Assembly: GCA_001938485.1 (NCBI GenBank)
Contig: MQRK01185218.1
Location: 33,482 to 94,979, forward strand
DNA: 61,498 nt
Direction: 5' to 3'
Origin: Girardia tigrina
Taxonomy: Eukaryota
Positions 314 through 32,184 of this stretch are shown in pieces. The position numbers and the translations under genes were made by a program. The notes under the pieces are model-generated. The model was not told where the DNA came from. It saw nothing but the letters and a program-made list of their open reading frames with translations, and ran no database searches. Positions within the stretch are counted from its first letter, which is position 1. Each line of letters begins with the position of its first letter.

Positions 314-2522
314 ATCGAAGATTCGCTATGGTCCATTACCGCGATCCTGGACGGGTCGGAGTTGGTTTGGGCGATCTTGATACTGGATTGATCCTGCAGT
401 GTTATTATTATTCACAGATAACGTGCACCAATCTCATCTCATTTTTACTTTTGATATATCCGATTTCAATTTGTTACTTTGAACTTGAATCTTTTGCAAT
501 CCATTTGCAACCTCGGAAATGGAGTGACGAAGTATTTGAGATTCCTCGTCGACTCTCGTCATTAAATTCGCTATATCGTTTGATTTCACGATTTCTTCAC
601 GTAATTTTTTCTGTTCCGCTACAAACTTTCTAGATTGGAGTTATTGAAATTTTTAAACTACATTAATTGTACTTGAATGCTTCAACTGTTTCTTTGATTT
701 CCGGTTGCAGTTCTGTATCCTTTACTTGCTTCACAATGCTATAGATATAATAATTATCATATATTGTGATTATTTATTAAATAATTTGTGATTATTTATG
801 ATTATTTATTAATTAATTTGTGATTATTTATTAATTAATATGTAATTATTTTTTGATTAATTAGTGAATATTTACTAATTATTTTATGAATATTTATTAA
901 TTAATTTAGGAATATTTATTAATTAATTTGTGATTATTTATTAATTAATTTGTGTTTATTTATTAATTAATTTGTGAATATTTATGAATTAATTAGTGAT
1001 TATTTATGAATTAATTTGTGATTATTTATTAATTATTTTATGAATATTTATTAATTAATTTATGATTATTTATTAATTAATATGTAATTATTTATTGATT
1101 AATTAGTGAATATTTATTAATTAATTTATAATTATTTATTAATTAATTTGTGATTATTTACTAATTATTTTATGAATATTTATTAATTAATTTAGGAATA
1201 TTTATTAATTAATTTGTGATTAATTATTAATTAATTTGTGATTATTTATTAATTATTTTATGAATATTTATTAATTAATTTATGATTATTTATTAATTAA
1301 TTTGTGATTATTTATTAATTAATTTGTGATTATTTATGAATTAATTAAATAATTAATCATATCGAATAACAAAAAGCCAAATTAAACAACAAGTAAAAAC
1401 TGATATCGAACAATCGAACCTGAATTTTTGAGCCGAATCTTTCGAAACGTTCGATTTCGAAGATTCCGATATCGGCGATCCCCCTAAGCCTTTCTTGGCG
1501 CTAACAGACGTGCTGGCGAGCGGAGATGCCGTACTGGCCAGCGATTTAAAGCCGCCAGCAAGCGCTCCAAACGGCGCTGGTTGGACCGCAGTCGACGGAG
1601 TAGCGACCGACAGATTGAGAGACAATCCCCCGCTCGTCGTCGACGACACCGCGCCACCAAGCCCCAGTCCGAATCCCGATTGAATTGGCGCAGTAGACGA
1701 CGCGACAGACGCCTGAGGCAACGCGAACGAGAATGCCGGCGACGTCACCGCGCCAGAGGACGATTGAGTCGTCGAAAACGCTCCAAAACCCGATTGAGGC
1801 GCGTTATTGGCGGCCGTCGACGGTAGCGCTTGATTTGTGCCGCCAAATGGAGAATTTCCGGTCGATTTGGAGAGGAATCCGAGCGAAGTCGTGCCGGCAG
1901 AAGCCGTAGCGTTGCTCGTCGAGAGACCGAATGAAAATGTGGGGTTACTTCCGGAATTGTTGATCGAGATCGGATTGGGTGGATTGAGAGAGAACGCGCC
2001 GGTCGGATTTTGATTGGCGGTTGCTGGTGCGATCGATTGACCGACGAGTGAAGTGCCGTTGGTCGATAACGAGTTGGAATTGACGGAAAATATCGACGAA
2101 TTTGCGGTCGATTGATTGGCGGAATTTGGGAAATTCGAACCGGTGATATTTGTATTATTAAAGCCGAAATTTGTGGTTGTTGATTGACCGAAATTTACAG
2201 TTGACGGTTGACCTAAATTTGCAGTTGAAGATTGACTGAAAATTCCGTTTTGATTGGCGTTGAAACCGGTCGATTGATTTGTCTGATTCGAGAGATTTTG
2301 GAACATGTTTGATGATTGATTATTGATCGCTGTGGAGAAAGTCGATGATGGATTTGATGAAATGATACCGAAAGTTGGTTGGGGTTTGTTTAAATTAGAA
2401 TTGAAATTTGGTGTTTGTAATGAAAATGAACTGATAGTCGATTGTTGGTTGGAAGAAGTGTTGGAGTTGGGAAATAAATTCGTGGAATTATTATTGCCGA
2501 ATGTAAATCCTGATGTGTTCAT
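314..2522 (-). CDS. NUP58: Nucleoporin Nup58/p58-p45-like, partial. Exons 2522-1420, 738-673, 629-449, 393-314; the 3' end was not resolved.
   Basis: Exon 1 encodes an FG/S/T/N-rich domain. GT-AG splicing in consistent phases gives ..KKGLGG..KQVKDTELQPEIKETVEAFKKFVAEQKKLREEIVKS..LRHSISEVANGLQKIQVQSNKLKSDISKDQSSIKIA. This matches the Nup58 coiled-coil start (GLGG..KALKDENLP..VENLQKFVKEQKQVQEEI..AANGIQR). Confidence 0.85.
750..1352. repeat. AT-rich minisatellite (~21-22 bp unit, TTATTAATTAATTTGTGATTAT) in Nup58 intron 1
   Basis: Many degenerate tandem copies are directly visible. Confidence 0.9.
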
Positions 2523-3087
2523 TGGATTTGAATTGCTTTTTGTTTTGTTTTCTTTCGTTTGAAATGTTACTTGATTTTAAATGAAGCACGACAGTTGTTT
2601 ATTAAAACAAATTTTAATTTTTAATTTTTAATTTTTTATTAATATTACCGGAATTCTCCAAAAATAAGCCCATAAGCGTATTTTAAGCTGGGATTATTTT
2701 CGGAAAATTTCTCGAAATTACTTTTTTTTGAAAAATAAAGCATCGCAGATTTTATAAAATTATGTTTATTCATTTTTACTTAAATTAATTTTTTTCTTTT
2801 TATTTTTTTTTTTTTTACTCGCAAAAAAATTTTACTCCGAAAGATGTCCCAGATATTATCTACGGAAATATCCGATATATAGGAAAATCATAGCAAATGT
2901 TTATCATAATTAAAAACGCTATTTGTGTCCAATAATTTTAATTCATAATAAAATTATTAATTTGTACATTTTTCGAACATGAATGCGTTTTTGATGTTGT
3001 AAATAATATCTTCCATTCTTTTTATTAGCTTACTTTCTATAAATATATATATCCATGGACTTTAAAAACATATTTTTGAAGATTGGG

Positions 3088-3435: not shown

Positions 3436-6400
3436 ATTTATTAGTTTTGATAATAATTCTCCTCACATCCCCCTCTGTTTAAAAAGTCGTATCCATTCAA
3501 CGTTTCTTACAATGATACGCCCCCCATCAAATCTAATAATATAGCTTTTATCATGTCTCTTCTCAACAATTTTAGCTGGTCCTTCATATCTATCTTCGGT
3601 TTTTGACACATTTGGTTTTTTGATCAATACCAAGTCACCTACTTTAAATTCTCTTTCGATAAGTTGTTTGTCATCTTTATTATCGTTATTATTATTTTCT
3701 ACGATTGCTTTATACAATTTTGATCTTTTCTCTTGTCGTATTTCTACGTATTTAATTTCATCATCTTCTTTGTCAGTTTCGTCATACCATTCTCTTGAAA
3801 TCTTCTAGCCAAAAACGAGTTCTGCTGGGCTCATTTTTATTGTACTTTGTAGAGTACCATTGATTAAGAATTCTACTTCAGGCAGAATTTTAGTTCAATC
3901 TCTGCTTTTTTGTCTTTCAATGATATATGGATGGCATCTCTTATTATCCTAAATGGTCTTTCAATCTGCCCATTAATAGAATGATGATAAGGACTAATAA
4001 TATTTTACTTTTACAATTTTCTGCTAACTCTTTTACTAGTTTTGATTCAAATGATCTACCGCAATCACATATTATAATTTTTTGGAGTGCCAAACTTTAA
4101 AATCCATTTATTTTTCAAAGTATTTGCTACAGTGCGTTCTCCTTGATCTGGAACTGCAGTCAGCATTATATATTTACTGAATTGATCAATGATTGCCATT
4201 ATATATTTTTGTCTTCCAAATGATGTATTAAAAGGGCCACAAAAACCAATATGAATCGTTTCAAATAATGAAGTTGGTTTACTTTTAACTACTTTTTCTT
4301 TCGTTTTAGTCGTCAACACTTTTCTCTTCTGGCAATTTTCACAACTCTGCACAATTTCTTTAATTTTCTCTTTTCTATTTGCCATATCAAATTTTCGAGA
4401 TATGTATTCGTGAACTTTCTTAACTCCCGCGTTACATAGCAGCTCGTGAGTATGGGTTATAATTTTTCTTGTATTTTCTTCAGGAATACAAATTTTATCT
4501 TTTTGTGTATAAACAATGTTGTTCAATATTTTCCACTTTGTTTCCTTATTATTTTCAATCTCGTTCTTTATATCGTTTATTTCTTTGGAATCTTCCTGCC
4601 ATTCTGAATCATTATATTTGAACATTAAAGCCAAAATCTTGGTCTTCAGCATGCCGGTTTTGTGGTCTTCATGTATTGTTTGACATTGAGCACAAGTTTT
4701 ACAATCTATTCCTGATTGTGCATCGGCATTAGAGTGTTCTTCCCCTTTTCTATACTCCAACTGGATATCTAAGCTACTCAAATGATTAATCCATATCTGA
4801 AATTGAGGAGTTATGGGTTTCTTTGTTTTCAGCATAAACGTTATGGCTTTGTGGTCAGTACGGAGTTTGAAGCGTTTTCCGTACAAATAGTGCTTAAAAT
4901 GTTGGGTAAAATAAAATATAGCTAATAATTCTTTTCTTGTTATGCAATAACCAAGCTCATGCTTATTCATGGCTCGTGATCCATAAGTTATTGACTTTTC
5001 TCGTCCATTTTCGTCCAATTGCAATAAAACCGCTCCGATTCGGTCAAAACTTGCATCAGTATCGAAGATAAATTCATTTGAAAAATCTGGAAATGTTAAA
5101 ACTGGAGCTTTTGTAAGTTCTTTTTTCAAATTTTGAAACGCCTTCTCGCAGTCGTTTGTCCAACAAATTTTATTTTGTGTACTGCCACATAACGATTCTA
5201 GAACTTTCGAATATTTCGTATAATCCTTTATAAATCTTCGATAGTAATTGGTGAATCCAAGGAAACTTCTTAGTTTTTTAACACTTTAGCGTGTGCAGTT
5301 TGCACCACCAACTTCCGTCGTTGGAACGGGAAGAAAAAACAAATAGAACAAGCGTAAAATATATTGATACATGACATGAGAATACGAACCGAATCGGCAA
5401 AATAGGCGCATCTATCGGCATGATCATTGAATTGAATACTCGTGTATTGTTTGGGGATAATTGATTTGACGACTGAGTGTTTGCTAAAGTTGCTGGCTGT
5501 GCATTTGCTTTTGGTCGTGGTGGATTCCATATTTCTTATTTTTTAAATTTGTTTGCCACTTTGTTTAGTAAAACAAAAACATTAATTTTTGTTTATTCAT
5601 TTAATTTGTTGAATTTTTCTTTATAATGATTTTTTGGAATACCACAAACATATTTGGGACTTTCGAATTTTTCAATAGCTTCAATTTTTGATTTCTCAGT
5701 TTGAATTCCAATTGCATTTATTTGATGACCTAAAAATCTAATTTCTTCTTTCAAAAAGTGACATTTACTAGGGTTTATTTTTAGACCAGCTTCCTTTATC
5801 TTTTCAAAAATATTTTCAATTCTTTTATAGTGTTCTTTCAATGAGTTGGATAATATCAGGATATCATCTAAATAAACCACAGCTTCTTTCCAATTGAGTG
5901 GTCCTAGAACTTTATTCATTAATTTTTGAAATGTGGCGGGTGCAGCAGCTATACCAAACGGCATTCGATTAAAACAATATTGGGAAGATTTAGTTGAAAA
6001 AGCTGTTTTTAACTTCGAATCATCACTGAGCTCCACTTGATAAAATGCGTTACCAAGATCAATAGTACTAAAATACTTTTCTCCATATAAAATATCCATC
6101 ATTTCTGTAGTATTAGGAATAGGAAAAATTGGTCGTTCAGTGACTCCATTTAAAGCTCTATAATTCAAACAAATTCTTATATCTTCACTATCTCTTTTCT
6201 TTACACACACTAATGACGAATTCCACGGTGATTCACATTTATTTATTATACCATTGTCTTCCATTTCTTTAATGCTTTTATCAATTCTTTCGATTAAATG
6301 ATATGGTTGACGCCGAGGATTCATTACGATTGGTTTGCTATTAGTCACTATCTCAGGTTTTAATAAATTAGTTTTCCTGATATCCCAATTGTGTTTCATT

Positions 6401-7080
6401 ATAATATTTTCATATGTTTTTAATATTTCTTTTAATTTAATATCATTTACATTAGGGCTTTCATAAATATTTCGTTGATCTTCCAGTACATTTAAAGATT
6501 GAGAGATACTCTTATATTCTCTCATCAATTTAATATTAAATTGACTAAATAAATTAATACCTACAATTATACTCGGGGAAATTTTAGATGCTATATAAAA
6601 TTCTATTTTTTTCTTAATATTATTTAATTCGACATCCAAATAAACTCTTCCTACTATTTCTAAATTACTATCGTTAGCGCATCTTACTTTGGCGAATGAT
6701 TTATTAATCTCAAACTTCCCTATTTTGTTTAACAATTCTTCCTTAATAACACTTATTCTTGCTCGTGTATCAAGTAGGCACTTATTGTGGATTCCATTGA
6801 CTTTAATATTGACAATTGGTCTGCCATCGAATTTATCATAATCAATTATTTCATTTTTATTATTGAGTCTATCAATATTTTTAGAATTATTATCCTCAGA
6901 CAGTATCGCTATTTTATTATTATATATTACATCATTTATTAATGTACTTAATTCAATTAAACCATCTAAAATATTATCATCATACAATTTGCAAACATAC
7001 GTATTATCATTAGATAAATCATTTTCATGAAAATTATCAGTATTTAAATTGTTATAATTGTTGGGATATCTGCGTGAATT
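3436..7080 (-). mobile_element. Decayed Ty3/Gypsy pol (PR-RT-RNaseH-IN) with polypurine tract and truncated 3' LTR start
   Basis: Protease LLDTRARISV (DTG mutated); RT MPFG/YLDD; RNase H DTDAS/RTDH/NADA; integrase H..C..C and IDQFSKY; C-terminal FKVGDLVLIK..YEGP. Stops and frameshifts lie around 3800-4065. The PPT AAACAGAGGGGGA is followed by TGTGAGGAG at 3467. Confidence 0.95.
5285..5651. other. 367-bp unclassified insertion interrupting the Gypsy RT/connection region
   Basis: Removing it restores ..FESPK-C-VKKLRSFLGFTNYYRRFIKDY in frame. Confidence 0.75.
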
Positions 7081-7085
7081 TTATA

Positions 7086-7580
7086 TGTTAAAAGAAAAAC
7101 AAAACAATAAGACTTTTTTTAATAAATATTGTAATTCTTATTCACAATTATACAAGAATAAAAGAATAAAAGGTACACAAGTTTTAAAGAACTTAACTTA
7201 TTTATGAATTTCGATGTTGGGTAGCGGGACAACAACGTTTTGTTTATCCCAAGATGATTTTAGTTATATATAAAAATATATTACAGAAATATATAAATTA
7301 TATTTTAAATTCTTTTTGCTCGCACTTTAATCTCAATTGCCGATAGTTTTTTTTCCTTTTGTGAGGTTCTCTCTCTTACTGAATTTCTCAAGCATTTATA
7401 TAGTCAATTTAATCAGAAATTCTGATTACTTAACCTTGACTGGTGCACACGCACTAGAGATAATTTTCTTATTTCTATTAATTCCCTTGAGAGTGCTTTT
7501 CTTGGCTAATCTTGAATTGTGTCACAGGCAATAGAGATAATTTTCTTATCTCTATTAATTCACTTGAGAGCACTTTAACA
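7086..7580. mobile_element. Solo-LTR-like insertion between gag and pol
   Basis: Termini are TGTTAAA...TTTAACA, with an internal ~40-bp direct repeat (7454-7498 and 7533-7572). No target-site duplication was seen. Confidence 0.45.
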
Positions 7581-8219
7581 CGTCGTAGATAAGAAAATAA
7601 ACTTCTTTAGTTTTCTTTTTCAGTTAAAGTTGCAATTAAGTAATTAATTAATATAATTAAGCTTCCTTTTATAATATATTTTTAAATTAAAACTTTTTCT
7701 ATTTACTTGTAAAATAGCTTAATTATTTCCTTCTTAAAATTATCTTTCTTTTCTTTATTAGCTTGTTTACGCTTTTTATTTATTTTAATTCATTTATTTA
7801 TATATATTTTATATTTAATATGATAAAAGGATAAATAATTTTTATTATATCCATTTAATTAAAACAAAATATTAATTCTTAATATTTATAATTTTATATA
7901 CTCAACATAATTATTATTCGAATTATACACGTGAGAGTTACTATCAGAAATATTGATAAATAGCACACCATACTGGTTATCATCATAAAAATCATTATCA
8001 TACAAATTATCAGATTCATTATTCAATATACAACTTACATGATTCAGTGAATCGCCCCGATAACCTCCTCTCATGGCAAGGCTTTGGCATTTGGGTGTTT
8101 GTCAACCATCTCAGACGACTCGTCTGACACGAGTCCAGCTCCGAATCTTGGTATTCCACTTGATCATCGAATTCAGCGACTTTTTATCTCAGGTATGACT
8201 CCTTCCTCCTAGATTTGTA

Positions 8220-9416
8220 GCATTAGTGACGAAAATGTCCGGGCGTCTTGCAATGATAACATTGCACGTGTGGGCATTGACTTCGAACATGGCCTTTTTC
8301 TCTACATGCTCAGCATGTTTTTATTTGATGGGACAATTCTCTTCCTTGATATGCTTCTTTATTACTATAATGTTTACCCCTTCTGTTAAAATATTGTGTT
8401 TGTTTGGGCTTTTATATTTCTCTTCTTTCGCCATTATAGTTGTTATCTTCTTTCGGAACGGCCGAATACTCCATCTTCTCCATGTTTTCGAGCCGCATCT
8501 GCAAACTTGATAATATTGAAGTAATACTCGCAATCTGCGTGAGCATGTCTGCATTTTGTGTTTCAGGTGCGCATACTGTGACAGGGCTCGGAACAGGCTG
8601 AGTGCTGACCTGAAAACAACTGCTCTCATTTGATTGCTGAGTAAGCCAGATGTTGTCGGCTACAAGTGCCAGCGTCGGAAGCTCCTGATTTTCCATGACA
8701 GCCAAGATAGCTTGAGTCATGGGTGGCAATGATTTGAGGAAAAATCGCGACAGGATTTTGTTAGTGGGGTCCTGTGCTAATCCTGGTTGGATCTTCTCCA
8801 AGTCATTTGTGACCCGCTTCAGGAACTCCGAGGGCTTACTGAGACCGAGGACTTGCGTCTTGAAGTACTCCGCAAATGTGTCCTCAAAAGACGGCTCATG
8901 GGCGGCGAGAATGATTCGGCGAAGTTCGTCATATGGCTTCTGATGCTGGTACAAATGATCGGTGTGTTTGTACACCACTTGCATCAGTTCAGCCGGTAAG
9001 ATCGCCAGAGTATTGAGGAAGAAAGTCGGCTGTGCAGTGATGTGCTGCATCTTGAACCGCATGTCGACCACACTCAACCATCCTTTCGGTGATCCATCAC
9101 TGTCACTGAAATATGCCGGTGGGGGAATATTCACAGTGATTGCACTGATACTCGGGTCTGAATCGTCGGCGGGGGGTGGATTTGTCCCCGTATCCGATCC
9201 CCCGGGAAGATTCATGTGCACGATGACACGTGCATGATCTCGGATTCCGTACGCGGCCCAGGTGAGATGTGGTCGAATCGGCTTTGCGGCACACTCAAGC
9301 AAGAAACCGGTACGGAATTTTTTGGGAAGTGACGTAATTGCGTCATTTATTCGCGCCTCAAGGGCGACCGTCAACGTCGAGCTACCAAGAGCCCCCTCAA
9401 ATGTGATTTTGATCAC
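8220..9416 (-). pseudogene. Ubiquitin-like domain fused to Gypsy-type Gag, with two in-frame CCHC zinc knuckles beyond internal stops
   Basis: 9416-9198 encodes VIKITF..KPIRPHLTWAAYGIRDHARVIVHMNLPGG. A Gag core follows (PKGWLSVVDMRF..PYDELRRII..LGLSKPSEFL..FLKSLP..QAILA..LALVADNI, DUF7041-like). The same frame continues past TAA at 8412 to C*ACREKGHVRSQC and CYHCKTPGHFRH*C. Confidence 0.8.
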
Positions 9417-9659
9417 TCTTCGACCGGAACGACAGCGAGTAATGTCGTCTGTTGCTTGAAGCGGGCGGTTGGCGTGATGGCGCTTTATTGCGGGCAGGGT
9501 TAAGGGTGATGGGGTCAAGAATCGGGCAACAGTAGCAACAAAAAAGAATTTAAATTTAAAGAATTTAAATTGATTATTAACAAAAATTATTAAAATTATA
9601 GAATATAAAATATTAATACTCGCGACCCGAAATTTTAAAACTGAAAAAATCAGACTTAC

Positions 9660-10330
9660 ATCAATCGGTGCCGCATGACCGGTCACCGAGCGCGGCTGGA
9701 TCCATCGGGCTGGAGTCTGCATCTACTCGTCTCCCGTCAGGCGCTTGAAGGTTCGAAGCACTTCTGACACTATTTTGATGTGGATAAAGTCACCAATATC
9801 AGCATCCCTCAGCAGCACAGCGTCAGTGGACAGCGCGTCCTCGAGCTCCAGCCACTGTCCTCGTCGCAGAGCCGTCACGAGAGCGCCACTGGAAGTCTCC
9901 GGGCGAGTCCGTGCAGCAGTATCCGCCTAGGATAGCGCGCGCATCCGTGTCGTCGCTCACTTGCACCCGATTGATCGATCGGCCCATTTTATCGGCCATG
10001 AAATCTATCAGTGCCAATTTGCCTCTGCCTACGGGACCGAACACGAAGATTGATCGATTCGCCGCGATAAATGTCGCGATATCATCGATCTGCGAGGCGA
10101 ATTGACCAGGTTGCACGAATCGGTTCATTATCGGCCGATCGAGTTTCGTTTGAGTCGATGATTCCGATCGATTGGAATCGATATTATTCGGGGAAATTTT
10201 CGAACGTTTTTCAATCATATTTGAAATTTTCTTGGATTTTTTTCGTTTTTTCGATTGTCTATCTATCATTGTCGAAAATTGTTAATCGATTATTTATGAA
10301 ACCACTCAGTAAATTGCAATTGTGAAGACA
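9660..10330 (-). pseudogene. MDN1: Midasin (MDN1/Rea1) first AAA-domain fragment, frameshifted and interrupted
   Basis: IFVFGPVGRGK..RVQVSDDTDARAILGGYCCTDSPGDFQWR, then after a frameshift ALVTALRRGQWLELED, a ~155-bp insert, and HAAPID followed by a GTAAGT donor. This matches midasin GPIGCGK..VQLGDQTDSKMLLGMYRCTDVPGEFVWQPGTLTQA..GHWILLEDIDYAPLDV. Confidence 0.85.
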
Positions 10331-10559
10331 AGCAAATGATTTAGTAAAATGCAAACAAATTTCTTTGAATTCAAAATTTTTTATTTATTTACAACGATGA
10401 TTCAAACAAGTGTTCGATTTTTTTAATTCTCATTCACATCATAATATAGTTTTTAACATAATATAGTTTTTAACTTTTTTTAATGCAAATCTGAATTTCT
10501 CAGTTTCAAAAGTTTCAGGGGTCGCAAATCCAATTAAGATTTTTTTTTAAATTAAAAAA

Positions 10560-10824
10560 TTAAATTAAATATCACATTAAAAAAACTCTTAATTGGTTGC
10601 TACTGCTGATGCGATTTAGTGAACACTACAATGAGGAATATCATCAGTATATATATGGATTAATGCCGTCATCAATCTGGGTCAAACATACACTCATTCA
10701 TTTCACAATACACACTATTTCGGTCGTGACCTATTACATAACAATACAAAGATCACACCAAAAACATTCCATACATAAATTACACAACATGCATTTATTA
10801 GTTTTGATAATAATTCTCCTCACA
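10560..10824 (-). mobile_element. Candidate 5' LTR of the Gypsy element
   Basis: The first 32 bp (10824-10793) are identical to the post-PPT sequence at 3467-3436. The inner boundary is approximate. Confidence 0.6.
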
Positions 10825-11231
10825 GGCACTTCCCAGAAAAACAAATAATATATCATATATAATTAAAAAATTTATAAATAATGGTTTTTTTATAATTTAA
10901 CCATTTAATTTAATTTTTTTAACACTTTTGAATAATTATTTAATTTTTTTAACTTTTTAATGCGGTAAATATAATTTCAAATACATATTAAGCCAGAAAG
11001 GCTTAAAAAATAACTTTTTTGATTAAAACTTTTTTTTTAACTTTTATTATTTTTTAACTTTTTTTTATTAACTTTTTTTTATTAAAACTATTCATATAAG
11101 ACATTTTTGAATCCGTACAATTTGTTATTATAAGAATCATTTTTGTGAAATAAAAAACCATTACTTATAAATTTTTTAATTATATATGATATATTATTTG
11201 TTTTTCTGGGAAGTGCCTGTGAGGAGAATTA
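10811..11231. repeat. ~80-bp inverted repeat (10811-10890 and 11152-11231), plus an ~80-bp direct repeat (11076-11155 and 11311-11391)
   Basis: Near-identical copies read directly from the sequence. Confidence 0.9.
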
Positions 11232-11676
11232 GTAAATAGTAAACTTTTTATCAGCGATGTTTTGTCGTGATACTAATGATTATATATTATAATTCATTAT
11301 TAATTCAGAATTTTTATTAAAACTATTCATATAAGACATTTTTGAATCCGTACAATTTGTTATTATAAGAATCATTTTTTGTGAAATAAAATTTCTGGAT
11401 GTAAGAATCGTTTTTTTCTCACTTTAGATTTATTTCTGAACGATTCTGTGTCAAATAAAAAGAGAAGATAAACGACTTGATGAAATATGAATATTTTAAA
11501 ATAAATTTATGTATTTTGTATGTTTTGTTTTGATTGGTCATGAGGGGTCATGGTACTGATTTTGGTAACTTGTGATTAATCCGTGGTCGGCCTACGGACT
11601 GAAGTGCTTTACAATGTATCTTAGTAGTGTTATGTGAGTTTTTTATGACTGCGCGAATGAGTGTCCACAGTTTGAG

Positions 11677-13062
11677 ATGATACAACTACCGAAGATTGCT
11701 GTAATCGGGACCGGGTTTGCCGGTCTATCTGCGGTCGTTCGTCTTAAAGAATTAGGATTGAAGAATATTGTGATATTAGAAGGTCGAGCTGACGTCGGTG
11801 GTAGAGTTCGCACGATTGATTTTTGTGGTAAGAATTGAGCTTTCGAATTATTTTAAAATGAATTCGAGAATTTGTAATTGAAAAGTAAGAGTGAGCATTT
11901 CCTAGGTTCGAGATTCAACATCGGTCCGGAATGGTTGCACGGCCAAGACAGTAATCCGGTTTATAATTTAGCTAAAAATAAACTCGGATTACAAGTGAAA
12001 GATTCGAATGATTATAAATTTTATTTCAACGAACCGAAGAATTTGTCAATTGATCGACGCGAGAAAGTGTTTAAATTAAAGTTAAATGATTTACAAAGGT
12101 CGATTGACAAGCATTTCATGGACGAAAATATATGGACCTTTGAAAATAAAAGTATTTTCGATGTGTTGATTGATCATGAGAGAGAACAAGAACCTGTTAA
12201 TAAGTTTGCGGAATATTGGGCATTTAATTTTGGAAATGGTTATTCTATTGACGAATATTCTGCCCTAATGTATAAATTGTCGTCAGATATTTATGAAAAT
12301 GTTTCGCCTTTCTCGGACTTCTATTTCGTGGAAAGTGATGGATATTCACAAATGATAAATTATTTTGTAAAAGAAGCCATTCTTAAGGAAAATGATATTC
12401 GATTTAATGATTCAGTTACGAAGATTTACTTGACGGCGGATGGAGTGGAGATTGTTACGAAGAAAGGCAAAATATATCTAGTAGATTATTGTGTATGTGC
12501 GGTACCTCTATCGGTCATTGCCAATAAATTTATTAGAATTTATCCTGATTTTGATGATGACCTTTATGCGTCTGTTAAAAAATTGAAATTCTCAACCTAT
12601 ACGAGGATATTTGTTGAATTAGAAAAGCCCATGTGGACGAATGAATATGACTGGTTGATCGATCTTTCGGTCGATTTTAGAAATGATATTAGTTTGTGGC
12701 AGAATCGGCAAAATACGAGGGTACTAATTGGTCATGTCTCTAGTTTTAATGAGAGTATCTCTTGCCATTTGAAGAATAACATCGACAGAAGTTTAATGAA
12801 TATTATTGGTAATGATTATAAAGGAATACGGGAATGTAGATCGGTGACACTGGAACAATGTCCTTACAGTTTCGGTGCGTTTCCGGCTGCCACTCGTGAT
12901 TTAAATTTAGTTGATCTAAATAATTTCCAAAGATTACATCAATTTAAGTCATTATTGTTTGCTGGTGATAGTTATTGTTTGGAATATTTCGGAACCGTCC
13001 AAGGAGCAGTCAAGAGTGGCATGGAAGCTGCAAACAATATATCATATCAATTAACAAAATAA
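11677..13062 (+). CDS. Flavin-containing amine oxidase (polyamine/spermine oxidase-like). Exons 11677-11827 and 11906-13062.
   Basis: Exon 1 reads MIQLPKIAVIGTGFAGLSA..ILEGRADVGGRVRT (FAD Rossmann GxGxxG and GGR). A GT-AG intron in phase leads to NIGPEWLHG..CAVPLSV..LLFAGD..GTVQGAVKSGMEAA. The start codon is not certain. Confidence 0.9.
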
Positions 13063-31250: not shown

Positions 31251-32184
31251 TTAACTTTTTTCAATTTTGATACTGGATTTTTTTTCAACCATTTTTCTGT
31301 CTTTAAAGACATAGGATTGAGTTTCGTTTATACTTTCGATAAGATCTTGTCGAAATTTTCTCTGGCAAAGTGCTACTTTGTTATAATGTTCTTCAACTTC
31401 TATCTGTGTTTGATTTGCGTATCGATTATGTCGAAGTTTTCTTACTCTAAGTGCCTCCTGTCTACGACGTTCTTCGGCTTCGAAAGGTGTTTCCCTTTCG
31501 TATCGGCTTTGACGTAGCTTTCTTATTCTAAGGGCTTCATGTCTGCGACGTTCTTCGGCTTCAGAAGGCGTTTCCTTTTCGTATCGATCCTGACGCAATT
31601 TCCTAACTCTAAGTGCCTCCGCTCGGCGACGTTCTTCTGCTTCAATTAGTGTTTCATTTTCAATTCGATTTTGACGCAACTGTCTTCTCCTATATGCTTC
31701 TTGTTTGCGACGTTCTTCAGCTTCCGATTCTGTTTCCTTTTCATATCGAAGTTGACGTAGCTTTCTTATTCTAAGGGCACCTTGCCTACGACGTTCTTCA
31801 GCTTGACTTGCTGTCTCCTTTGCATACTGACGTTCTCGAAATTGACGTTTTCTTAGCGCTGCGCGTGCTTTTCGATTAATAGACTCTTGTAATGTCTCAT
31901 TTTCAAATTGAATTTGACGTGATTGTCGTTTTCTATAAGCTTCACGTGTCCTTCTTTGAAAAGTATCAGATTTGTTTGTTTTTTGTTGTTGTCGCCGAAT
32001 CATAACTGCAACTTTCTCTCGGTGTATTGAATCAACTGTTAAACTTAAAATTTTGATTTTGGATTGAATTTCTCTCTCCTCATCGATATTGACTGTCTCT
32101 TCGTCTTTCACTGGGAAAATTTCTAATAGAAAATAAAAATTCTTAAAAATGCTTTCGTTCTGACAGCATTTCACTTGTAGACAT
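31251..32184 (-). CDS. Basic helical 27-aa tandem-repeat protein (STPR-like). Main exon 32122-31251; 5' end uncertain.
   Basis: Uninterrupted ORF with at least 7 repeats of ETxxEAEERRRxEALRxRKLRQxRYEK at exact 81-bp spacing (31898-31332). There is an acceptor TTTTCTATTAG at 32123 and a candidate micro-exon ATGTCTACAA at 32184-32175. Confidence 0.65.

Follow-up and report, generated by a model that had tools for sequence, protein, structure and literature searches.

A ubiquitin-like domain ending in Gly-Gly fused to Gag in a Girardia tigrina Ty3/Gypsy retrotransposon family, with host-gene pieces in frame inside the LTRs

Ubiquitin-like domains (UBLs) ahead of an unrelated protein are familiar from the host precursors UBA52, RPS27A and FUBI-eS30, in which the domain is N-terminal, starts with its own Met and ends in Gly-Gly (GG). 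FUBI is processed from its precursor, and in the retrotransposon Ty1 the gag gene starts inside the long terminal repeat (LTR). Ubiquitin has reportedly also been found fused to L1 proteins in protists. In pestiviruses, the ubiquitin inserts of bovine viral diarrhea virus (BVDV) Osloss, CP1 and CP Rit are cut by host hydrolases after the insert, which gives the downstream protein its true N-terminus (PMC8310069). Here we examine a 61,498-nucleotide stretch of Girardia tigrina DNA (contig MQRK01185218.1, positions 33,482 to 94,979; hereafter the window), which carries a copy of a Ty3/Gypsy LTR retrotransposon family whose Gag is preceded in frame by a UBL ending in GG. Comparison of this copy with its relatives makes it likely that Gag in this family is translated at the end of one long frame and released when a host deubiquitinase or UBL protease cuts after GG.

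In the proposed scheme, the frame would run from a variable, LTR-encoded start through the primer-binding site (PBS), a leader, the UBL and its Gly-Gly to Gag, with translation beginning at an AUG in the LTR that would often be a captured host start. New fronts could be acquired by splicing, if an element sitting in an intron is joined to the first exons of the host gene, or when reverse transcriptase switches to a host mRNA; extended strong-stop DNA would then jump to the 3' end of the element, placing the piece in the LTR. Out-of-frame captures would block Gag synthesis and be lost, and in-frame captures would be tolerated since the UBL removes them. Host ubiquitin would occasionally be re-captured into the same slot, resetting the cleavage signal, and the element would thereby act as a natural exon trap that borrows host promoters and start codons. 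A variable front, an invariant GG on a drifting fold, re-capture of ubiquitin and the lack of a UBL protease of its own are what a host-cleaved release signal predicts.

An initial annotation, made from the window's sequence alone, had described a 73-residue domain ending LPGG on the minus strand (9416-9198), in frame with a Ser/Asp/Pro linker and Gag. Our translation agrees, as does the annotation's list of kept and lost ubiquitin residues when set against that translation and a ubiquitin chain. A UBL search of the window's own 1.43-Gb assembly gave 150 scored matches from 659 candidates; the 148 loci fetched (L-numbers; P-numbers denote outside proteins) comprise 120 distinct copies in nine subfamilies (A, 38; B, 13; C, 5; D, 25; E, 26; F, 7; G1, G2 and G3, 2 each), the window copy belonging to group A. 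Gag lies within 450 nt of the UBL in 112 of 117 scorable copies, and the remaining five break off in the linker. The suspected co-occurrence of UBL and gag was thus borne out as a multi-copy fusion with a conserved GG in nine subfamilies, and this linkage rules out a host gene juxtaposed to gag only at this locus. GG is the commonest pair in all nine subfamilies and persists in 86 of 112 scorable decaying copies, encoded by differing synonymous codons. The residue after it varies among families (S, G, M, T, V, I or N), contrary to the fixed Ser initially proposed as the Gag N-terminus.

Selection was assessed by scoring variants against the commonest codon of each column, those present in at least three copies being counted as shared. 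In group A, dN/dS of shared variants was 0.25 for the UBL, 0.39 for Gag and 0.54 for the leader, and 0.87-1.03 for rare variants. Base composition is continuous from the UBL into gag, as had been noted, with a GC fraction of 0.45-0.51 over 8001-10000 against 0.23-0.29 in the flanking kilobases. The suggestion that the UBL is an integral and selected part of a multi-copy LTR-retrotransposon family is therefore upheld, and none of the findings named at the outset as fatal to it (absence of a beta-grasp fold or profile match, relatives lacking the domain, GG or frame, or a host gene at this locus only) was encountered. The UBL is a real, selected, family-wide domain.

The fold of this domain emerges from the family rather than from the window copy. 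The single 73-residue sequence has no match in Pfam or the Protein Data Bank (PDB), and AlphaFold run on it alone gives a poor fold (pLDDT 55.6). A 25-sequence UBL alignment is gap-free, with group A 37-49% identical to the others, and the family profile matches ISG15 (E 0.002) and polyubiquitin (E 0.06), GG on GG. The Pfam ubiquitin family is matched by 4 of these 25 members (best E 0.03) and clearly only by the outside relatives described below. With an alignment of 56 sequences, AlphaFold2 predicts strands and helices in ubiquitin order (pLDDT 78.4), and a Foldseek search with this model retrieves ubiquitin, ISG15, NEDD8 and SUMO (E 1.5e-5 to 2e-4, TM score about 0.7); against the PDB it gives 265 matches at E<=0.001, the top 50 of which are all ubiquitin-fold proteins. 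The beta-grasp fold that the initial annotation expected is thus predicted from the family alignment, though not from the single sequence.

While fold and core residues are conserved across subfamilies, the surface by which ubiquitin is recognized is not. The window UBL has Glu and His at the positions of Ile44 and Val70 and ends NLPGG instead of LRLRGG, and the hydrophobic patch and basic tail are lost throughout the local families. This bears on the idea, raised in the initial annotation, that the main product might be a released leader-UBL acting as a conjugatable modifier or as a decoy for the host ubiquitin system. Cleavage would indeed expose a free C-terminal GG, three outside families have near-canonical ubiquitin, and ubiquitination-related domains occur in Burro elements (PMC6431247). 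The loss of patch and tail in local families speaks against such a product, as does the fact that the released piece would have a different N-terminus in every sub-lineage; with the terminal GG alone invariant and the binding surface drifted to about 20% identity, the modifier or decoy role fits poorly and we regard it as very unlikely.

The outside relatives are more informative about GG itself. A profile search of 1.84 billion representatives gave 10 matches, three of them from the window family, and two word searches added 27 metagenome proteins. Of 29 outside proteins examined, 23 cover the region, and in all 23 GG lies 18-27 residues ahead of the Gag motif, even though most outside UBLs are only 17-26% identical to the ubiquitin of P0021. 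A PBS-like peptide lies upstream in 14 of the 23, across all three frames; as P0006-P0037 are known as proteins only, their PBS is deduced from peptides. Metagenome DNA scans for these relatives returned nothing in one case and only four distant gags in another. A homolog search with the group-A open reading frame (ORF) found none at E<=1e-12, and in the ESM Atlas the only leads were DUF7041 entries scoring below 0.9, with no cluster that combines ubiquitin and Gag. The distant DUF7041-type gags L208, L209 and L211 start with their own Met, without a UBL or an open leader. A further protein, P0007 (1887 aa, with an Exo_endo_phos endonuclease), has two ubiquitin-like units (~505-543 and ~802-875) ending LPGG and LLGG, and is possibly a non-LTR retroelement using the same trick.

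In P0021, P0027 and P0033 the slot holds near-canonical ubiquitin ending RLRGG (Pfam E 2e-24 to 1e-22; P0021 is identical at 56 of 75 positions), with the Ile44/Val70 patch and LRLRGG tail present in P0021 and largely so in P0027 and P0033. In the Gag tree, P0021 is sister to the degenerate P0015 (99/97), and a single clade of the three near-canonical proteins is rejected (p-AU 0.016; the group had been defined beforehand by Pfam and was tested after the first tree had been viewed). The first tree disregards the L210 row, which was in the wrong reading frame; the second comprises 20 proteins, leaving out L208-L211, P0002, P0023 and the genomic rows. These relationships suggest that the slot was refilled by ubiquitin two or more times, the alternative being that an ancestral ubiquitin was retained here and decayed fast elsewhere.

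Could the UBL instead remain on Gag, as a folding aid or an interaction domain (for example for trafficking or ESCRT-type factors), with GG as a flexible linker and the element's own aspartic protease doing any trimming? Conservation of the fold and core residues across subfamilies would suit this, the element has a protease motif of its own, and Pro before GG is unusual in deubiquitinase substrates. It is harder to reconcile with a surface that drifts to about 20% identity while GG is kept in every outside protein covering the region, or with re-captured ubiquitin whose end falls at precisely this GG; cells do cleave fusions of the canonical RLRGG type, and an uncut Gag would bear 200-400 unrelated residues. 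We consider an uncut domain unlikely.

The residues in question are those encoded upstream of the UBL. The initial annotation took the GTG at 9416 as the start of an N-terminal leader of the UBA52/FUBI kind. The window frame is in fact open for a further 102 codons upstream, to 9722, and in sibling copies it is open up to the PBS and into the LTR, which makes the UBL internal, behind 110-260 codons of leader and LTR-encoded sequence. The first UBL codon in group A is GTG in 18 copies and ATG in 14; it is never ATG in the other eight subfamilies. In most copies the PBS lies 305-790 nt upstream of the UBL. In 29 of 62 leaders free of N (9 others contained gaps), the best frame holds no more than one stop, compared with averages of 3-15 per frame in block shuffles; 17 leaders are in register and have no more than one stop when read in the UBL frame. 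The depletion is carried by groups A, B, E and F. The commonest leader codon is never a stop over 90, 116 and 178 scored columns in groups A, B and E, where dN/dS of shared variants is 0.54, 0.22 and 0.29, respectively, and that of rare variants 1.0-1.2.

Transcript evidence comes from RNA-library contigs of four runs only, runs with small word shares having been left out, and DNA carry-over is possible. In one contig, at a depth of 21.6, the stretch 8474-9784 is unspliced and carries a single in-frame gap of 15 nt. A donor-like motif followed by AT-rich sequence occurs 180-290 nt before the UBL in 17 of 19, 10 of 13, 3 of 3 and 12 of 16 copies of groups A-D, and in 0 of 11 and 0 of 5 of groups E and F; in the window it is GTAAGT at 9654..9659 (minus strand). 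No splice joint at 9659 was present in the contigs of the four runs, which are unable to show the absence of a minor spliced form. That the AT-rich leader is an obligatory intron is unsupported, as it is stop-depleted and unspliced in contigs. A conserved membrane anchor is likewise inconsistent with the leaders' best 19-residue hydropathy, 1.3-1.9 in group A and 1.1-1.7 in B, E and F. Near the PBS, the last 60 nt of the LTR in groups C-F hold, by eye, a pyrimidine-rich stretch and AG resembling a splice acceptor.

These data also bear on whether Gag is made mainly from a downstream start (a Met after GG, the first UBL codon or a spliced message), with the upstream frame kept open against decay or regulating translation versus packaging and the host pieces as passengers. 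Several subfamilies do have Met after GG, the 14 group-A copies with ATG as first UBL codon could be read in the same way, and the donor motif of groups A-D could serve a spliced message. Yet Met is absent after GG in groups B and D and in most outside proteins, the contigs show no joint at the donor, and purifying selection on the amino acids of the group-A UBL implies a role as protein. A predominantly downstream start is in our judgment improbable.

The variable front of the long frame lies in the LTR. Eight group-A LTR types are alike over bases 1 to 142-281 and then diverge, apart from an RRM pair and a short repeat that regain similarity further along. Pieces of host genes were identified by scanning LTR ends in three frames with Pfam, in 27 of the 31 copies prepared from groups A and B and over at most 750 nt ahead of the PBS: a midasin-type AAA_5 in the window copy, RRM in L002 and L148, BTB in L005, Arf in L131 (E 1e-17) and CUX1_N in L147. 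The scan also gave a transposase piece in another frame of L137 and one weak chance match. Since 11 solo LTRs have exact 5-bp target duplications and four heads follow a polypurine tract, the host pieces are true LTR contents. This rules out the midasin piece as a flanking host pseudogene; the initial annotation had overlooked that the upstream "midasin gene" lies within the element's own LTR.

The captures keep the frame of Gag. This holds for the commonest capture length of CUX1 (16 of 23 copies with the end found; 25 loci), the Arf-like piece (14 of 17; 25 loci) and midasin (7 of 12; 22 loci), for BTB, which is 607 nt long in four copies, and for RRM. With each capture taken as an independent unit, five of five are in frame with PBS, leader and UBL (chance 0.004), and the longest terminal open stretch is in the Gag frame in 35 of 38 LTR rows, a count in which rows share tails and include duplicates. 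The pieces are nested, newer fronts being joined to older tails. There are 56 CUX1_N and 95 Arf-like matches. Outside the assembly, P0006 is an unbroken 661-aa frame opening with an ARP8 piece (E 2e-6), and P0011 begins within an Hsp90 piece (E 2e-12). The host midasin AAA1 exon was not found, all 29 new loci examined being LTR pieces or too short to tell; the upstream exon of host CUX1 was not found either, and the host Arf-like gene was not identified.

Several chimeric or unassigned LTRs were also observed. In L274 a midasin-type LTR end is fused in frame to an RRM-type LTR, making a 1253-bp double LTR, and contigs of runs X1 and X2 fuse the midasin piece to an RRM-type LTR tail at 9883-9885, a further chimeric type. 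In-frame LTR ORFs without a Pfam match occur in L140, L143, L171, L009/L136 and group B; that of L140 resembles, by eye, the start of a DEAD-box helicase.

Two captures retain traces of their route. The CUX1 piece is 98.75% identical to a host exon, and the match begins exactly after the intron AG; the LTR continues upstream as CUX1 coding sequence, so the piece derives from spliced RNA. At its 3' join the piece shares a 14-nt similarity (2 mismatches) with an older LTR, as expected from template switching. The match between the BTB piece and its host locus starts 40 nt ahead of the ATG and stops exactly at the exon-1 donor. In another LTR type (L144, one example) the segment to which it is joined comes after an AG, the arrangement that splicing of a host exon into an intronic element would leave. 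The 5' join of BTB lies about 10 nt past an AATAAA in the head region, presumably at the place of the element's poly(A) site. Most CUX1-type LTRs (L215 compared with host exon L237/L239) are missing 51 nt bounded by GT...AG, which in the host appear to be coding and in L212-L214 are mostly kept; this in-frame loss may come from cryptic splicing.

Taken further, the captures would describe a widespread Gypsy clade living as a self-renewing gene trap that brings host transcription starts, 5' exons and start codons into the LTR and translates them across the PBS, with a captured and from time to time re-captured ubiquitin as a universal release linker. Nearly every host gene could then supply the promoter and initiator of Gag-Pol, and LTR swapping would be selected, for expression pattern or escape from silencing, and not just tolerated. 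We offer this extension tentatively, as somewhat short of probable.

A number of observations weigh against Gag release from a long captured frame. Translation and cleavage are both predicted from sequence. Dead group-A copies keep GG no better than the mean column (0.88-0.91 versus 0.88), so the conservation signal comes only from comparison between families. The UBLs of the local families have no basic tail and finish in PGG, Pro occupying ubiquitin position 74, and a profile comparison of A2 with P0021 fell in the expected register at a probability of 1%. UBL dN/dS is 0.49 in group D and uninformative in groups B (3 non-synonymous, 1 synonymous) and E (5 and 1, not below 1), where counts are too few. 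Most leaders of groups D and G do not share the register of the UBL, and most of those in D show no depletion of stops. Met directly follows GG in groups C, E and G2 and in P0006 and P0011, and an ATG stands at the LTR/PBS junction in groups A, C, D and G, indicating that a captured start is not required everywhere. Only group A and two outside proteins yielded an identified host-gene capture; in group B, 9 of 13 LTRs contain in-frame ORFs longer than 100 codons but none with a Pfam match, and neither the midasin nor the Hsp90 piece comes from the very N-terminus of its model protein. That the BTB junction arose by splicing is read from a single L144-type LTR, and the host second exon was not found.

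The family otherwise has the features of Ty3/Gypsy elements: TG...CA LTR ends, 5-bp target duplications, a PBS and a polypurine tract, the last ahead of the LTR head in L155, L163, L165 and L175. Full or near-full copies of groups B and C have the pol order protease (PR), reverse transcriptase (RT), RNase H (RH), integrase (IN); in group A only PR and RT motifs were seen. Gag has Cys/His knuckles, and an A-rich slippery site precedes the gag stop. The paired LTRs of L032 are 97.6% alike, and the UBL start lies 4.1-4.5 kb from the 3' LTR in L023, L032 and L034. Neither a deubiquitinase nor a ULP domain, nor any accessory domain, was found in the two pol regions examined. The DUF7041 Gag and the knuckle pattern are those of the Mag clade, to which the family may belong. 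In L041 (group D), sequence about 700-1200 nt upstream of the UBL resembles 28S rDNA by eye.

The window copy is a dead 5' fragment of such an element, truncated at 8474 and lying wholly on the minus strand. Its 5' LTR (9776..10630, 855 bp, TG...CA), whose siblings are 93-99% alike over the head, begins with a conserved head of about 160 bp (10471..10630) common to all group-A LTR types in pairwise matches among the eight, which is probably the U3/promoter. The captured midasin (MDN1/Rea1) AAA1 coding piece occupies approximately 9806..10218; small deletions break its frame here, while siblings are open for 181-187 codons to the LTR end, and in sibling L154 it aligns to yeast midasin 288-403 (domain E 6e-14). 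The PBS (9761..9772) has one mismatch to the family motif and reads x-V-S-E in the UBL frame; we take its primer to be tRNA-Leu. The leader (9417..9773, 119 codons, partly AT-rich) has 1, 7 and 12 stops in its three frames (shuffle mean 5.7), the single stop in the UBL frame lying at 9725-9723. It is followed by the UBL (9198..9416, GG codons 9203-9198) and by the linker and DUF7041-type Gag (8474..9197), which is truncated ahead of the C-terminal Cys/His knuckles and matches DUF7041 at E 2e-4, below the curated cut-off that the Gag of L023 passes.

Homology to siblings stops at 8474-8470. The sequence beyond, at 3463..8473 (minus strand), belongs to a different Gypsy element and comprises the remainder of its gag together with its pol (RVP, RVT_1, RNase H, integrase). 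The LTR of that element lies beyond 10631; one 4545-nt RNA-library contig spans 8300-8440 plus 10678-10800, thus covering both flanks and showing the fragment to be nested within this second element. The initial judgment that the copy is dead is correct, given the LTR/PBS junction codon (there is no start codon at this junction), the leader stop, the small LTR deletions and the truncation; the "downstream stops" cited for it, and the last ~20 codons of the 8412..9416 feature it had drawn, belong to the different element. Elsewhere the window holds a single-frame flavin amine oxidase (11878-13062, plus strand, E 2.5e-28), a 407-codon FG/N/S/T-rich, nucleoporin-like frame without a Pfam match (1353-2576, minus strand), and repeats at 10808-11234 (an 83-bp, 98% inverted repeat pair, MITE-like), 662-1400 (a 22-bp tandem array) and 31307-31924 (an 81-bp tandem array).

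If this reading is true, an LTR retrotransposon would depend on host deubiquitinases for Gag maturation, a strategy known until now from recombinant RNA viruses and host precursors, and serial in-frame capture of host exons into LTRs would have a mechanism. The scattering of tens of copies of the 5' end of each captured housekeeping gene confuses annotation and could cross-wire small-RNA silencing, and the series from true ubiquitin to a PGG-ending UBL would offer natural material on protease specificity. Full-text literature searches, screened mostly by title and the opening of the abstract, gave no description of a ubiquitin domain ahead of a retrotransposon Gag or of in-frame host pieces inside LTRs, although most subscription journals and Repbase lay outside the search and may hold one; the parts consulted of PMC9289625, PMC8502044, PMC6875170 and PMC2774510 contain nothing on this architecture. 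In the literature found, the architecture is undescribed, and we regard it as a variant of Ty3/Gypsy.

Compared with known systems, the family shares its Gag family, knuckles, slippery site and PR-RT-RH-IN order with ordinary DUF7041 (Mag-type) Gypsy elements, and differs from the DUF7041-type gags L208, L209 and L211, which have their own Met and no UBL. Unlike the UBL of UBA52, RPS27A and FUBI-eS30, the one described here is internal and mobile. LTR-mediated retroposition (Tan et al. 2016, PMC5131818; Bs1, Ty) likewise joins pieces of host mRNA, frequently more than one, to element sequence at short similarities and spreads them; in that process internal ORFs are replaced and the elements are non-autonomous, whereas here the pieces lie within the LTR and in the Gag frame and gag-pol is kept. 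The planarian giant Gypsy element Burro/GYPSM1 also carries a domain of the Ubi2/SUMO-like kind, and its ORF1 shows homology to midasin in one species (PMC6431247); this ORF1, however, is ~5000 aa with Gag N-terminal and the SUMO-like domain downstream, in an element of more than 25 kb with env and accessory domains. Here the internal regions are ~4.5-5 kb, the UBL precedes Gag and the host pieces are inside the LTR. Pestiviruses also place captured ubiquitin inside a polyprotein behind unrelated host-derived sequence (PMC8310069). Their inserts are sporadic, in an RNA virus and upstream of NS3, whereas the UBL described here precedes Gag throughout a retrotransposon clade, where it is fixed; it has diverged into a form of its own and appears to have been refreshed more than once, with cleavage in this case predicted.
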